IMG/VR virus record: IMGVR_UViG_3300045988_046012
Coordinates: 1 to 39,733 of that record
DNA length: 39,733 bases
Reading direction: 5' to 3' (one strand)
Origin: a virus
The notes beneath the pieces are model-generated. The model saw only the letters and a program-made list of their open reading frames with translations, was not told the origin of the DNA and made no database searches. Made by a program: the position numbers and the translations under genes. The number at the start of each line of letters is the position of its first letter. Positions within the stretch are counted from its first letter, which is position 1. Positions 2,755 through 18,148 of this stretch are shown here, one piece after another.

Positions 2755-3159
2755 ATGAGTATGCAGGCAATGGACGAGCTGCGGGAAATGCTCTGCAAAG
2801 AGCTGGACGAGATCAGCCGGAAGGGCGAGCTTGGAGCTGGTGACCTAGATATCGTGCACAAGCTGACCGATACCATCAAAAATATTGACAAAATCGAGAT
2901 GCTGGAAGATGACGGTTATAGCCGTGACGGCGCATGGGAGGCCGACATGCGCGGCAACTATGGGCGCGGCAATAGCTACGCCAGTCGCCGGGGAACCCAT
3001 TATGTTAAGGGACATTATAGCCGTCGTGGGACTGACGGCTATAGCCGTACCGACAGCATTGAGGCATTCCGAGACCGTGCGCGGGAGATGATGCGGAACG
3101 CAACCGGCGAAGAACGCGAAGTGCTCCAGCGCTGCGTGGACGCTCTGGATCGGGCATAG
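2755..3159 (+). CDS. Hypothetical protein with helical ends and a central G/Y/S/R-rich low-complexity segment
   Basis: SD aaGGGAGGgatatataATG; central segment DGYSRDGAWEADMRGNYGRGNSYASRRGTHYVKGHYSRRGTDGYSR. Confidence 0.75.
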   Translation: MSMQAMDELREMLCKELDEISRKGELGAGDLDIVHKLTDTIKNIDKIEMLEDDGYSRDGAWEADMRGNYGRGNSYASRRGTHYVKGHYSRRGTDGYSRTDSIEAFRDRAREMMRNATGEEREVLQRCVDALDRA

Positions 3160-3173
3160 CCCAGGAGGGGCGT

Positions 3174-3482
3174 ATGCTTGATTTGGACGAGATTAACGCC
3201 GCCATCCAGGAACTGGAAAACGGCGAAACCACCCTAGCAAACTGCTCCAAACTAGCTACACTGCACACAGTAAGAGATCATCTAATAGAGACCGACTATG
3301 CGCCGTACTCCTATGCTTCTGCACCAGTGGTGGCCGTTTCTGGTGATAGCGATTTTTTACGTACCATTTTGGGCCGCGACAATCAGGCAGTGATGGATAT
3401 CATGGATGATCTCATGGATACGCTCAGGGTATCAATGCCCAAAGCGTATCGCAGCGTGATGGAGCGACTGCGGAGCATATAA
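3174..3482 (+). CDS. Hypothetical protein, last gene of the accessory operon
   Basis: SD ccAGGAGGggcgtATG; followed directly by a terminator hairpin. Confidence 0.75.
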   Translation: MLDLDEINAAIQELENGETTLANCSKLATLHTVRDHLIETDYAPYSYASAPVVAVSGDSDFLRTILGRDNQAVMDIMDDLMDTLRVSMPKAYRSVMERLRSI

Positions 3483-3484
3483 GT

Positions 3485-3508
3485 AGAGGGGCGGATAACC
3501 GCCCCTCT
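3485..3508. terminator. GC-rich hairpin, bidirectional terminator between the accessory operon and the integrase gene
   Basis: agaggggcgg-ataa-ccgcccctct, perfect 10-bp stem, followed by attatttgg. Confidence 0.75.
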
Positions 3509-3545
3509 ATTATTTGGTTATAATTAACTGTGAGCACACCAAAGG

Positions 3546-4871
3546 TTAAATATAGCCAGCTAATTCAAAATTTATTTCGCCGTCGTTGCTGACGGAGATT
3601 TTTTTAACGGTACGCCTCCAAAACTCACGACGCTCTGACGGCTCTAAACTGCCGTAAACATCCATCGTGGATTTTAATGCATCTACATCTATTTGCTCCT
3701 TTTCTTCCGGCTCCGGGGCTTCTAGCTGCTTCCTGAGCGATGTGTAGTCCTTTGCGTATACGTCGCGCTCTATCAAGTCGGACAGGTACAGATCTTTTAG
3801 TTTTTTCATTTTGCGCTTTATCGCCGCCTTGTCTACAGTTTGCTGATTGGATGCGTTCTGTTGGGCGATCTCTACATTATAGTTGATGCATCCGGATATG
3901 ATGTGATCTACCATGTACTGCTCCAGATCCTTTTCGCGCTCCCGGCGGCGATGGACGCAGGAGCGGCCTGCATAGCTCGGACACTTGTAGTACACGTATT
4001 CGCCGCCGTGGACGTGGGACATGGTGACGGACAGGCGACGGCCACACTCGGCGCAGAACACTATGCCGGTGAATAGATATATATGCTTTTGCGTAAAATC
4101 TCCGCTGTGACGGGTGGAACGTTCTGCCATGATGGACTGAGCAAGGGCAAAATCCTGCGGTGGGACGATGGGCGGGTATAACTGCTCACCGTTATCCGCA
4201 ACGCCAATATACCGCTTATTTTTGAGCATCTGCTTTGTGTTTTTGTAGGAGCGGGTGATACCATACTCGGATAGGAGATAGCGCCCAGTTGAGGTGACAG
4301 ACTGAGTGGCGATAAAGTGCCTGAACACATCTCGGACAACAGGGGCGGTTTCTGGGTCTTCCGTTAGCTTCCCTTTGACGATTTTTAGTCCAAGCGGTTG
4401 CGTGCCGTGATGGCACAAACCATTCTCCCGCTTATTTTTGTTTATGGTTTTGATTCGCTCAGATGTACGGTCAGCCTCTGACTCCGCGACCGATAGCATA
4501 ATGTTGACCTTAAATCTTCCGGCGCTGGTTTCTGTCTCATACTCCTCCTCAATCGTTTTCCAGCAGACGCGGTGCTCGTCCAAAACGTCCTGAACTTTAT
4601 AATATTCTTTGACATTTCTGAACCACCGGTCTAGCTTGGTAAATACAATCATCTCAATTTTACCAGCTCTAACATCGTTCAAAAGCCGCTGCAAATCCGG
4701 ACGCTTTGATGCTGGCTTTCTGGCTGATACTCCGGCGTCAACGTACACGCCCACTATCGTATGATGGTTTTCGTTTGCCCATTTTTTCAAATTTTCCTGC
4801 TGCACCCCGATTGACAAGCCGTGTATGGCCTGCTCCTCTGTGGACACTCGCGCATACAGCGCCACACGCAT
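3546..4871 (-). CDS. int: Large serine recombinase (phage integrase)
   Basis: N-terminal resolvase motif MRVALYARVSTEEQ, recombinase domain, Cys-rich zinc-ribbon region (CAECGRRL ... YYKCPS), C-terminal coiled coil; 441 aa. Confidence 0.9.
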   Translation of the reverse strand: MRVALYARVSTEEQAIHGLSIGVQQENLKKWANENHHTIVGVYVDAGVSARKPASKRPDLQRLLNDVRAGKIEMIVFTKLDRWFRNVKEYYKVQDVLDEHRVCWKTIEEEYETETSAGRFKVNIMLSVAESEADRTSERIKTINKNKRENGLCHHGTQPLGLKIVKGKLTEDPETAPVVRDVFRHFIATQSVTSTGRYLLSEYGITRSYKNTKQMLKNKRYIGVADNGEQLYPPIVPPQDFALAQSIMAERSTRHSGDFTQKHIYLFTGIVFCAECGRRLSVTMSHVHGGEYVYYKCPSYAGRSCVHRRREREKDLEQYMVDHIISGCINYNVEIAQQNASNQQTVDKAAIKRKMKKLKDLYLSDLIERDVYAKDYTSLRKQLEAPEPEEKEQIDVDALKSTMDVYGSLEPSERREFWRRTVKKISVSNDGEINFELAGYI

Positions 4872-16137: not shown

Positions 16138-16455
16138 ATGGCTGATTACATTGACCGGCAGGCCGCAATTGCGGCACTGAGGAAATTTGCGGAGGAATGC
16201 AAGGATAGTACGGAGGCTGCAACTGCGGCGGCTATGGCGATTTCGGTGATTTCGAGGCTGCCGGGGCCGTGGGCGAGCGTGGGGGATAAACCACCACCCA
16301 AAAGACTCGGCGTGGCAGTAATCGTGCGTTATGGTAATTGTACATTTGTGAGCCACGCATGGTTAAACAGCTATGGTAAATGGGTCGGCATCCCGGCTGG
16401 TGGAACCGTCAGCAGTTGGGCCCCCATGCCGGATGTGCCGGAGGTGGCAACATGA
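16138..16455 (+). CDS. Hypothetical protein (DUF551-like C-terminus)
   Basis: SD GAGGAGAGG upstream; C-terminal W/P-rich end SSWAPMPDVPE. Confidence 0.7.
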   Translation: MADYIDRQAAIAALRKFAEECKDSTEAATAAAMAISVISRLPGPWASVGDKPPPKRLGVAVIVRYGNCTFVSHAWLNSYGKWVGIPAGGTVSSWAPMPDVPEVAT

Positions 16456-16556
16456 CAAATATTGTCTATAACACGGACTGCATGGTTGGGCTGCGGGAAT
16501 ACCCAGACAAGTATTTTGACCTTGCGGTTAATGAGATTCGGGAGGCGGTGAAGTGA
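16452..16556 (+). pseudogene. 34-codon stub matching the N-terminus of an N6A/N4C DNA methyltransferase
   Basis: MTNIVYNTDCMVGLREYPDKYFDLAV matches the usual lead-in to the DPPY motif, but continues NEIREAVK-stop. Confidence 0.6.
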
Positions 16557-18148
16557 TTGCCCACCTTGGAGATATCACAAAAATTGACGGTCTCAATGCC
16601 CCGATTGTGGATTGTGTAATTGGAGGATCGCCGTGTCAGGACCTGTCGGTCGCCGGGAAGCGTGCTGGTTTGGCCGGCAAGCGTTCCGGTCTCTACATGG
16701 AGCAAATCAGATTGGTCAAAGAAATGAGGGAGCAGGATGAACGAAATGGACGGACAGGTGAGTCTATTCGGCCCAGATACATGGTCTGGGAAAACGTCCC
16801 CAGAGCGTTCAGCTCCAATAAAGGGAAAGACTTTGCCGCAGTCATCGAAGAAGCAATCAAAATCGTCGAACCGGAAGCCCCCGGTGTTGAAGTCCCTGCA
16901 AAGGGGTGGCCTACCTGGGGTGGCTACCACGATGGAGTGGCAGGACGATGGAGCTTGGCTTGGCGAGTGCTTGATGCGCAATACTGGGGAGTCGCCCAGC
17001 GCCGCCGTAGAATCGCGCTTGTCGTGGATTTTGGAGGAGACACCGCAGGAGAAATACTATTTGAGCGCCAAAGCGTGTGCTGGGATATTGACACGAGCAG
17101 AACGGAGGGGCAAGGAACTCCCGATGGAGTTGCAGGCTGCATTAAAGATACAGTCTGGTGCATTAAAGGCAACGCAATAGACCGAAACACACAGCAGAAC
17201 GGTGGCTTTGTGAGAGAAGACGTATCTTATACCTTAGATGCTACTGATCACCATGGCGTTTTTGCTCCTGGAATGTGTGCTGCGTTCAAACTCGGAAATT
17301 CTGAGAAAGCAAGGTCAATCGGGTATAGCGTTGAATGCGCACCCACTCTAAATGCGGAATGCGGAGGGAACAAACCTGCAATATTGGATATGACTCATGC
17401 TTGCGATGTGATCCGAGATTGTGGTCAAATTGTACCAACTCTCCAGAGCAGGATGGGTACTGGAGGGAATCAAGTTCCGCTTGTATTTGATGACGCAAGC
17501 AAGCCCAATATTAAATGTTATAACCCATGGGATTCCCAATCTGCAAGAATATATGATGCAGATGGTATTTTTCATTCTCTCAATGCGAACGAAAATGGCG
17601 GGCAGAGTAGAGATTCCATATTTTATAAGAAATCCGTAGATAACATTGAATATAGTCCTGATATTAGTAGAACTTTGTTAGCTAAAAGCGCTTGTTCAAT
17701 GGCCTATGATCTTGAAACATATTGTGTTCAAAATAAATATGTTAGAAGATTAACCCCGCTTGAATGTGAAAGACTTCAAGGGTTCCCCGATGGATGGACT
17801 GATATCGGAGATTACATAGACAGCAACGGACGAAAGCGGAAAACATCGGATAGCTCCAGATATAAAGCACTTGGAAATTCCATTGCGATTCCTCCGTGGA
17901 CGTGGGTACTGAATCGGATTTGCGGGAACTACGACAGACCGGCCACTATGGCGAGTTTATTCGACGGAATCGGAGGGTTCCCTCTTATCTGGGAAAGGAT
18001 CAATGGTGAGGGCTCTTGCCTTTGGGCTTCTGAGATTGAAGAATTCCCAATGGCAGTTACACGGAAACGATTTGGAGGTATGCCGCGGACAGGTATGGAT
18101 ACGGGGAAGGCCGCACAGAAAGGCCGGAGAGGAGTATTGAGGAAATGA
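16553..18148 (+). CDS. C5-cytosine DNA methyltransferase with permuted motif order (III/IV-VI-VIII-TRD-IX-X, then I-II)
   Basis: GDITKI, GGSPCQDLSVAG (IV), ENV (VI), QRRRR (VIII), RRLTPLECERLQGFP (IX), GNSIAIP (X), then in frame MASLFDGIGGF (I) and WASEIEEF (II). GTG 16553 has GGAGG 7 nt upstream. Confidence 0.75.
   Translation: MIAHLGDITKIDGLNAPIVDCVIGGSPCQDLSVAGKRAGLAGKRSGLYMEQIRLVKEMREQDERNGRTGESIRPRYMVWENVPRAFSSNKGKDFAAVIEEAIKIVEPEAPGVEVPAKGWPTWGGYHDGVAGRWSLAWRVLDAQYWGVAQRRRRIALVVDFGGDTAGEILFERQSVCWDIDTSRTEGQGTPDGVAGCIKDTVWCIKGNAIDRNTQQNGGFVREDVSYTLDATDHHGVFAPGMCAAFKLGNSEKARSIGYSVECAPTLNAECGGNKPAILDMTHACDVIRDCGQIVPTLQSRMGTGGNQVPLVFDDASKPNIKCYNPWDSQSARIYDADGIFHSLNANENGGQSRDSIFYKKSVDNIEYSPDISRTLLAKSACSMAYDLETYCVQNKYVRRLTPLECERLQGFPDGWTDIGDYIDSNGRKRKTSDSSRYKALGNSIAIPPWTWVLNRICGNYDRPATMASLFDGIGGFPLIWERINGEGSCLWASEIEEFPMAVTRKRFGGMPRTGMDTGKAAQKGRRGVLRK
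16737..17180 (+). CDS. Candidate overlapping gene (+1 frame) embedded in the C5-MTase gene, 147 aa
   Basis: ORF track; GAGGG 6 nt before ATG 16737; non-random sequence ending KYYLSAKACAGILTRAERRGKELPMELQAAL. Confidence 0.4.
   Translation: MNEMDGQVSLFGPDTWSGKTSPERSAPIKGKTLPQSSKKQSKSSNRKPPVLKSLQRGGLPGVATTMEWQDDGAWLGECLMRNTGESPSAAVESRLSWILEETPQEKYYLSAKACAGILTRAERRGKELPMELQAALKIQSGALKATQ

Follow-up and report, generated by a model that had tools for sequence, protein, structure and literature searches.

An open reading frame nested in the +1 frame of mobile-element C5 methyltransferase genes is very probably a second, overprinted gene

The virus record IMGVR_UViG_3300045988_046012 of IMG/VR, analysed here over a window of 39,733 nucleotides (positions 1 to 39,733 of the record), harbours on its plus strand a gene for a mobile-element C5 DNA methyltransferase (Dcm). 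Inside this gene, over the part encoding catalytic motifs of the enzyme, lies an open reading frame (ORF) of 147 codons in the +1 frame. The locus raises the question whether this nested ORF is a by-product of the enzyme's codons or a gene in its own right. We conclude that positions 16737-17180 very probably constitute a real second protein-coding gene, overprinted on the +1 frame of the methyltransferase gene. The ORF and its start signals are present in the window, the alternative frame is under purifying selection, and the same ORF is found at the same place and in the same frame of the methyltransferases of phages from several phyla.

The initial annotation, made from the letters of the window, described an ORF lying wholly inside the Dcm frame, and the ORF listing bears this out: the ATG of the nested ORF is offset from the start of the Dcm coding sequence (CDS) by 184 nt (3x61+1), which places it in the +1 frame. 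The Shine-Dalgarno (SD) sequence described there is also found, with GAGGG ending 6 nt before the ATG at 16737, and the same nucleotides do encode two motifs of the enzyme in the other frame. Motif VI (MVWENVP) is read as TWSGKTSP in the nested frame, and motif VIII, with the sequence QYWGVAQRRRRIALVVDFGG at 16979-17038, is read as NTGESPSAAVESRLSWILEE. Stops of the nested frame within the dcm CDS are located at 16554, 16617 and 16725, and the next ones at 17178, 17211, 17235 and 17349, which leaves a gap of 453 nt; 3' of the nested ORF they recur every 20-230 nt up to the end of the CDS. When codons were resampled with the Dcm protein kept, about 7% of the resamples were free of stops. The open frame of the window alone is thus only mildly unusual, and the significance of the nested ORF derives from the comparative evidence. 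The G+C content is 54.5% in the overlap (16737-17180) versus 44.8% in the remainder of the gene (17181-18148), with a mean of 52.5% for the window, a contrast which agrees with a mosaic gene, in which the 5' part is constant and the target-recognition part has been swapped, and equally with dual-coding constraints.

Two sets of relatives were compared with the window. The viral set comprises 80 of 311 relatives and was collected with the Dcm protein alone as bait (45-63% identity overall). The genomic set comprises 80 loci collected with the profile of the nested product, from Clostridia including Oscillospiraceae, Acutalibacter, Intestinibacillus and Flintibacter. Among the bacteria with a prophage of this type are Flintibacter muris DSM 110149, Intestinibacillus massiliensis and isolates of Acutalibacter (L102, L116, L119 and L132). 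In all 80 Dcm-baited viral loci the nested frame is open and encodes a homologous product, in ORFs of 138-182 codons, and the product matched 82 of 82 loci of the first round, always in the +1 frame relative to Dcm and uninterrupted. The Dcm frame, for its part, is open across the nested ORF in 79 of the 80 genomic loci. Over 132 loci, with stops counted inside the bounds of homology of each locus, the nested frame contains one stop in total, compared to 2.9 per locus when the codons are resampled with the Dcm protein kept; the identity of the nested product to that of the window is 59% versus 33% under the same null. A chance frame had been expected to carry stops in most homologous dcm genes, and the opposite was found.

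Of 154 loci, 152 have a start codon at the corresponding position (136 ATG, 12 GTG and 4 TTG). In the relatives it is preceded by AAGGAG or GGGAG, which are made by the Dcm codons K-E-M, so that start codon, SD sequence and open frame have all held. Just 5' of the start, most relatives possess a TGA in the nested frame, formed from Dcm ...ATG AGA..., which closes the frame on this side; a ribosome frameshifted anywhere upstream would therefore stop there. A promoter scan of the plus strand predicted no internal sigma-70-like promoter inside dcm, and translation from the dcm mRNA would thus be the simplest reading. The nested ORF would be transcribed on this mRNA and translated independently of the enzyme, from its own SD sequence and ATG inside the Dcm codons K-E-M-R-E.

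Selection on the two frames was compared along the gene. In an alignment of 64 sequences with less than 95% nucleotide identity, the entropy at Dcm wobble positions is about 1.26 upstream of the overlap and 1.15-1.5 downstream of it, and falls to 0.86 and then to 0.35 across it. At 17048-17137 the wobble entropy of 0.35 is lower than the entropy at Dcm first positions (0.7-1.07), which are the third positions of the nested frame. Synonymous differences, counted as codons that differ for an identical amino acid, amount to 0.51 upstream and 0.47 downstream, versus 0.26 (Dcm residues 63-164) and 0.09 (residues 165-200) inside the overlap (Wilcoxon, p 1e-6 to 5e-10, 32 disjoint pairs). The suppressed synonymous variation that the initial annotation had proposed as a test is therefore present.

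The ratios dNN/dNS for the nested frame and dNN/dSN for the Dcm frame were obtained by an OLGenie-like count. Over the whole overlap dNN/dNS is 0.48 (0.35-0.64), versus 0.90 upstream and 1.18 downstream in control +1 frames, in agreement with the earlier claim that the alternative frame is under selection. In the last third of the overlap (17046-17153) it decreases to 0.25 (0.15-0.36), and the Dcm dNN/dSN there is 0.97; the enzyme frame is therefore unconstrained in this segment, and the nested frame dictates the sequence. The idea that RGKEL in the nested product casts its shadow on Dcm as the EGQG stretch is upheld by these values as well. The C-terminal module of the product is the part protected by selection, and it lies over the linker after 'ILFE', where the enzyme tolerates almost any sequence. 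The N-terminal part is largely a compromise with Dcm motifs VI-VIII, in which both frames are constrained and Dcm is dominant.

Phages of hosts from at least five bacterial phyla carry the nested gene, in an unchanged frame and position. A tblastn search of 50,697 phage records with the nested protein matched 138 records. In 13 of the 14 annotated records inspected, the match corresponds to the +1 frame of the annotated methyltransferase CDS and is open over 131-192 codons, at a G+C content of 0.38-0.65; the nested ORF was annotated in none of these 13 records (listed in Table 1). The hosts belong to Firmicutes, Actinobacteria, Alpha- and Gammaproteobacteria, Verrucomicrobia, and Cyanobacteria. 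Common to the 13 phages are the motifs W.G(K/R)TSP, ...NTSEWPNDAAVCSLSxxLE, and (R/K)Y(F/Y)LSxKACxGILRRAEKRGKxLPxxLxxAL. Over the last 39 codons or so, the mean pairwise identity across phages is 63% in the nested frame (minimum 51%) versus 37% in the enzyme frame (minimum 16%). With the catalytic core encoded by the same window DNA as query, 106 phage records were matched versus the 138 obtained with the nested protein, and the identity to phages P1 and Omega is 33-38% for the catalytic core versus 50-56% for the nested frame.

Five phages were picked by the enzyme frame only, and three of them possess the nested gene (phages of Morganella and Terrisporobacter, and Pseudomonas phage TC7). The other two mark the boundary of the family. 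Citrobacter phage Omnitron (L187) has the N-terminal part of the nested product, with the C-terminal module scrambled after ...ACAGLI. Ralstonia phage YO034_1 (L183) has, at high G+C, an open +1 frame of 329 codons from which the conserved C-terminal motif is absent; enzyme conservation alone therefore does not generate the nested sequence.

Two of the matched phages show further features of the methyltransferase gene. The dmt gene of P1 spans 1,013 codons in the isolate OP279344.1 (L163, 901-3942), with the nested ORF at about 63008-63502 of that record, and, read by eye, it looks as if motif IV were interrupted by a putative intein (GGTPC|FTAGH...VVHN|CQAFS). In mycobacteriophage Omega (L164, 1814-3118) the halves of the methyltransferase carry separate gene annotations (gp127 and gp128), lie in the same frame and are separated by one stop and 6 nt; the nested ORF (1989-2462) ends ahead of this stop.

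As a protein family, the nested product is large. The 147-residue product has 767 database homologues at E<=1e-3 (the best at 1e-53, with 60-69% identity), mostly of about 143-154 residues and called as separate genes. With a profile built from 49 members, 4,510 cluster representatives (clusters at 50% identity) were retrieved, of which 3,054 reached E<=1e-10, and the version of the Roseobacter phage as query gave 1,255 further 'hypothetical proteins' of about 150 residues. The consensus of the C-terminal module is SRLSxILE...KYxLSxKACxGILRRAxRRGKxLPxxLxxAL. The initial annotation had placed a segment of the form ES.LS.ILE...KYYLS.KAC.GIL.RA..RGKELP in annotated proteins of Firmicutes mobile elements, and had advised a homology search with the product; the segment proved to be real and widespread. 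Scans against Pfam, NCBIfam and PADLOC could not detect any family match for the nested protein, nor could the Pfam and NCBIfam scans for seven cross-phylum homologues. PHROG gave a single match, to the small phrog_16143, whose label 'DNA methyltransferase' stems from association. No PDB sequence was matched by the profile at E<=10, and Foldseek comparison of two AlphaFold models with PDB and BFVD found no structural relative outside the family itself, the real matches being a fused 'cytosine methyltransferase' and an 81-residue protein of phage Thibault, both members of it. Literature searches, including searches by peptide string, found no published description of this nested gene.

The nested protein has a mass of 16.0 kDa and an isoelectric point (pI) of 9.3. 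The C-terminal 55 residues keep a pI of 8.9-9.9 in four lineages, with the pI of the N-terminal part ranging from 4 to 9. The AlphaFold models have a mean predicted local distance difference test score (pLDDT) of 58 and 62, the latter from an alignment of 89 sequences. The N-terminal 84 residues are mostly of low confidence (pLDDT mostly <60, and <50 at residues 1-9, 15-43 and 74-84), and helices are predicted at residues 89-101, 111-124 and 130-140, with pLDDT >90 at residues 111-140. Residues invariant across phyla include G18, L95, L99, E100, L109, C114, L118, R120, and G125. According to these models, the protein would be Ser/Lys/Pro-rich and disordered over its N-terminal half, with a small module of basic helices at the C-terminus, and the basic helical segment noticed earlier at the end of the product is predicted here as well.

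The host enzyme of the window is circularly permuted. The protein begins at motif III, and motifs I-II come after motif X; motifs I, IV (PCQ), VI (ENV), VIII (QxRxR), IX and X of C5 methyltransferases were all located, in an order other than the canonical I-X. In a phmmer search against PDB, residues 467-511 of the enzyme correspond to residues 15-57 of M.HhaI, and residues 6-59 to residues 59-112. The permutation is family-wide, because the 80 IMG/VR relatives kept from the 311 align contiguously over residues ~2-508 of the query. Canonical-order relatives exist too, and the nested gene is carried by canonical-order and permuted enzymes alike; it therefore predates the permutation. The enzyme frame is the ancestral one and the +1 frame the newcomer, because motifs VI and VIII are, to our knowledge, universal in C5 methyltransferases. 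The birth of the nested gene would have taken place in a single clade of mobile-element methyltransferases, with which it then spread. Downstream of the overlap, the target-recognition region is modular and recombines among relatives.

Table 1. Features of the dcm locus in the window, G tracts of related loci, and phages carrying the nested ORF
Feature	Position	Strand	Remarks
Host C5 methyltransferase (Dcm) CDS	16553-18148	+	GTG start, 531 amino acids; PF00145 1e-34, TIGR00675
Nested (overprinted) ORF	16737-17180	+	ATG, 147 codons and TAG; +1 frame; from the ORF listing
SD-like GAGGGAG	16726-16732	+	formed by Dcm codons (K)EMRE; 4-6 nt 5' of the nested ATG
Nested-frame TGA	16725-16727	+	three codons 5' of the nested ATG
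N-terminal ~92 codons of nested ORF	16737-17012	+	Ser/Lys/Pro-rich, predicted disordered; over Dcm motif VI up to motif VIII
Conserved C-terminal module of nested ORF (SRLSWILEE..KYYLSAKACAGILTRAERRGKELPMELQAALKIQ)	17013-17156	+	basic, predicted helices; extends over the last part of Dcm motif VIII, 'EILFER' and the variable linker ahead of the target-recognition region
Dcm motif III, GDITKI	16568-16585	+	
Dcm motif IV, GGSPCQDLS	16622-16648	+	
Dcm motif VI, MVWENVP	16781-16801	+	
Dcm motif VIII, QYWGVAQRRRR	from 16979	+	followed by the target-recognition region
Dcm motif IX, RRLTPLECERLQGFP	from 17744	+	
Dcm motif X, GNSIA	~17873	+	
Dcm motif I, SLFDGIGGF	17954-17980	+	
Dcm motif II, WASEIEEF	18023-18046	+	
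G7-G11 tracts in relatives	~0-150 nt 3' of the nested-frame homology		L089, L091, L097, L098, L104, L105, L131, L135, L154
Nested ORF in annotated phages			E. coli phage P1 (dmt); Mycobacterium phages Omega and Porcelain; Enterobacter phage CobraSix
Nested ORF in annotated phages			Pseudomonas phage zjk6; Streptococcus phage Javan108; Providencia phage PSTRCR_117lys
Nested ORF in annotated phages			Roseobacter phage CRP-822; Akkermansia phage Chantilly; Caulobacter phage DMCA
Nested ORF in annotated phages			Vibrio phage CP-T1; Pseudanabaena phage Pan4; Sinorhizobium phage NV1.1.1

Traces of gene traffic were found next to the methyltransferase gene. At 16452-16556 the window encodes the 26-residue N-terminus of an N6/N4 adenine/cytosine methyltransferase (MTNIVYNTDCMVGLREYPDKYFDLAV), which runs into a stop after 8 further codons and ends exactly at the start of the permuted dcm gene. 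Related phages possess the full-length N6/N4 methyltransferase gene (e.g. L002, 724-1407, and L018), and the fragment looks like a remnant of gene replacement. In L002 a GIY-YIG/NUMOD3 homing-endonuclease gene (3123-3818) abuts with its end the start of the permuted dcm gene. In mycobacteriophage Schatzie (L182) an HNH homing-endonuclease gene (527-1144) lies within an intron-containing methylase, annotated as 'unable to determine intron boundaries'.

Many database members of the family are proteins of 400-730 residues, in which the nested domain is N-terminal and is followed by the target-recognition region and motifs IX-X of the enzyme; those of the permuted type also carry motifs I-II. This fused state was found in nine of the 80 genomic loci, in which the N-terminal half of Dcm stops and the nested frame continues into the C-terminal half of the enzyme. 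The switch always takes place at a run of G just 3' of the conserved module, and the fused loci always have one extra G in a G6-G11 run relative to contiguous sister loci. At the site ...ATCA(G)nCTGTGACGG, G7 corresponds to a contiguous Dcm (21 loci) and G8 to a fusion (L089, L091 and L098); at another site the enzyme is contiguous with G6 and the fusion goes with G7, and runs of G9 and G11 occur at further sites. The window has no poly-G tract. In the relatives, the tract looks like a candidate phase-variable switch, as read from consensus assemblies in which an assembly error is possible. The poly-G fusion to the C-terminal half of the enzyme, the circularly permuted host enzyme and the range outside Firmicutes were additions to what the initial annotation contained.

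A second kind of chimera consists of hybrids that pass from the Dcm frame into the nested frame, found in P0034, P0050, P0084, P0113, P0117 and Faecalibacterium phage FP_Toutatis, of which the last is annotated as a 201-residue 'DNA-cytosine methyltransferase' (L176, 1180-1785). The gene calls of the clade are affected too. Gene callers pick the nested ORF together with a truncated C-terminal half and omit the intact Dcm frame (L001; L177, 2314-3666, 450 codons; L179), and the clade is systematically mis-annotated in metagenomes.

Together with the long proteins that start with the nested domain, the hybrids are what would be expected if the nested frame were used through programmed frameshifting, or as the beginning of another subunit of the methyltransferase, the trans-frame products being the real ones and the 147-codon ORF a truncated form. 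We consider this unlikely. The junction of the hybrids differs in every case, which argues for ordinary indels rather than programmed frameshifting, and no conserved slip site was seen, although a systematic scan for slippery heptamers was not made. The one-extra-G difference of the fused loci likewise indicates indels at the DNA level and not ribosomal events. The nested-frame TGA just 5' of the conserved start bars entry from upstream, and in the window, which lacks the G tract, the nested frame stops at the TAG at 17178-17180. A free-standing ORF that ends soon after the conserved helices is seen in most loci and in each of the 13 annotated cross-phylum cases.

It is still harder to maintain that the nested frame is not a gene at all, that it stays open and similar through the conserved core of Dcm, by codon bias, recent recombination or a homogenised constant 5' module, and that the database homologues are mis-called shadow ORFs. 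Some of the signal could be obtained in this way: the Dcm protein alone gives 33% identity in the nested frame and a chance of about 7% of having no stop per locus, the first two thirds of the overlap give no significant dNN/dNS (0.79), and the downstream target-recognition region is modular and recombining. However, the equally conserved regions around motifs III-IV and IX-X-I show normal synonymous divergence (0.51 and 0.47) and a +1 dNN/dNS of about 1. The segment 17046-17153 is most variable at the first position of Dcm codons, i.e. the third of the nested frame, so the nested frame is constrained where Dcm is not. Across phyla, and over a G+C range of 0.38-0.65, the same bases give 63% identity in the nested frame versus 37% in Dcm. 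The start is kept in all but two of 154 loci, with ATG swapped for GTG or TTG and not lost, and the Dcm of the Ralstonia phage exists without the nested motif. This explanation is therefore given very little weight.

Least probable of all is a constraint on the nucleic acid itself, such as an RNA structure or a DNA site (a dcm regulatory element, or a recombination site for swaps of the target-recognition module), for although the constraint peaks where the constant catalytic part gives way to the exchangeable target-recognition modules, and the poly-G tracts of the relatives lie just 3' of the constrained stretch, the variation is periodic in the nested frame, with position 3 free and positions 1 and 2 fixed, the dNN/dNS of 0.25 is a protein-level signal, the amino acids are kept with different codons at G+C 0.38-0.65, and nucleotide searches reach close relatives only, whereas the peptide reaches 138 phage records.

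Several points weigh against a second gene, or limit what may be said of it. The translation of the nested ORF and the function of its product are inferred from sequence. There is no family, PDB sequence or structural match pointing to a function. In two distant members, those of P1 and Chantilly, the first ATG is not preceded by an obvious SD sequence. The dNN/dNS of 0.79 in the first two thirds of the overlap has an interval of 0.59-1.07 and is not significant alone, and the conservation of the nested frame there is partly a shadow of the Dcm motifs. For an accessory or DNA-binding role, the evidence consists of charge, predicted helices, obligate linkage, and fusions.

If the nested ORF is translated, its product would be a protein of about 16 kDa, disordered in its N-terminal half and basic and helical in its C-terminal module. 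With low confidence, it might be a basic accessory or regulatory factor that binds DNA or protein, either working together with the methyltransferase or targeting the enzyme or methylated DNA; among other functions, anti-defence is the foremost candidate. Two candidates suggested by known methyltransferase neighbours were rejected. For a Vsr-like nuclease, neither the nested protein nor the seven cross-phylum homologues gave a Pfam or NCBIfam match, and there was no PDB match at E<=10. For a regulator with a helix-turn-helix (HTH) like that of C proteins, no HTH family match was obtained, and in the Foldseek comparison no DNA-binding fold stood out from noise; the predicted helices at residues 111-124 and 130-140 are basic and may bind DNA.

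More speculatively, the nested protein may be the functional partner in a switchable pair, or an anti-defence factor, e.g. against methylation-dependent restriction, that is inseparable from the enzyme, and we regard this proposal as doubtful. As partner in a pair, the ordinary state would be a full-length enzyme together with a free basic protein of 16 kDa. In the lineages with poly-G tracts, a slip of one base would truncate the catalytic half and graft the nested protein onto the DNA-recognition half, and the outcome could be a sequence-specific binder that does not methylate, or an enzyme in two pieces. As an anti-defence factor, the nested protein would be tied to the very enzyme that creates the need for it.

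Genes nested in the +1 frame are already known from phages, as is the coupling of a second gene to dcm. Among tailed dsDNA phages and bacteria, long nested genes supported by selection are a great rarity, and the rules of annotation pipelines do not allow them. In phage lambda, the spanin gene Rz1 of about 60 codons lies wholly in the +1 frame of Rz and was long overlooked by annotation; the two products form one complex of known function. Similar to Rz1, which is co-transcribed with its host gene, the nested ORF would be a complete +1 gene of a tailed dsDNA phage with its own start signals. Unlike Rz1, it lies over the catalytic core of an enzyme, spans 131-192 codons and is found in phages of at least five bacterial phyla. 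In E. coli, vsr, the gene of the very-short-patch repair endonuclease, overlaps the 3' end of dcm in the +1 frame by a few codons. Like vsr, which is co-expressed with dcm, the nested ORF encodes about 150 residues and is tied to a C5 methyltransferase gene by a +1 overlap; unlike vsr, it lies as a whole inside motifs VI-VIII, and it has no match to Vsr or nuclease families.

Divided and rearranged C5 methyltransferases are known as well. M.AquI consists of two subunits split in the variable region, and M.BssHII and the plant enzyme DRM2 are circularly permuted. The window enzyme, which has DRM2 among its PDB matches, resembles the latter two in being permuted and differs in its permutation point, which lies between motifs II and III. 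The enzymes of the fused relatives are divided as in M.AquI, here after motif VIII, and the C-terminal half carries the nested domain. We know of no described split or permuted C5 methyltransferase that is reported to carry a nested gene. In the phasevarions and poly-G contingency loci of Campylobacter, Neisseria and Haemophilus, a slip switches the enzyme off. The G6-G11 tracts of the relatives are similar in that they lie in a methyltransferase gene and a difference of one base sets the frame that continues; they differ in that one additional G joins the nested product to the DNA-recognition half of the enzyme, and the window has no such tract.

A further parallel comes from RNA viruses. The p69 protein of tymoviruses is overprinted on the methyltransferase domain of the replicase and acts in movement and silencing suppression; new proteins of this type are disordered or basic and lack homologues outside their clade, and the ancestral frame is told by its wider phylogenetic distribution (PMC8227390). 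The tymovirus case is the only one of this kind mentioned in that systematic review of viral overlapping genes (PMC8227390). Like p69, the nested product would be a de novo protein in an alternative frame over a methyltransferase domain. The tymovirus enzyme is an RNA-capping methyltransferase of an RNA virus, whereas here the hosts are DNA phages and the enzyme is a DNA C5 methyltransferase.

It is unusual for a gene to be nested over catalytic motifs, here those of an enzyme family that ranks among the best studied, and the nested gene makes a clean natural example of a de novo protein whose functional module is placed over an unconstrained linker of its host gene. Thousands of 'hypothetical proteins' and odd 'methyltransferases', consisting of the nested domain only, hybrid or fused, become explicable, and gene callers are seen to discard an intact methyltransferase frame for the nested ORF. 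Anyone who engineers or 'silently' recodes these methyltransferase genes would alter a second protein without knowing it. The dmt gene of P1 carries the unannotated nested gene, which makes it directly testable in E. coli. If the reading as a partner of the enzyme or as an anti-defence factor is true, a family of thousands of proteins, present even in P1, would have a biology that has gone unexamined.

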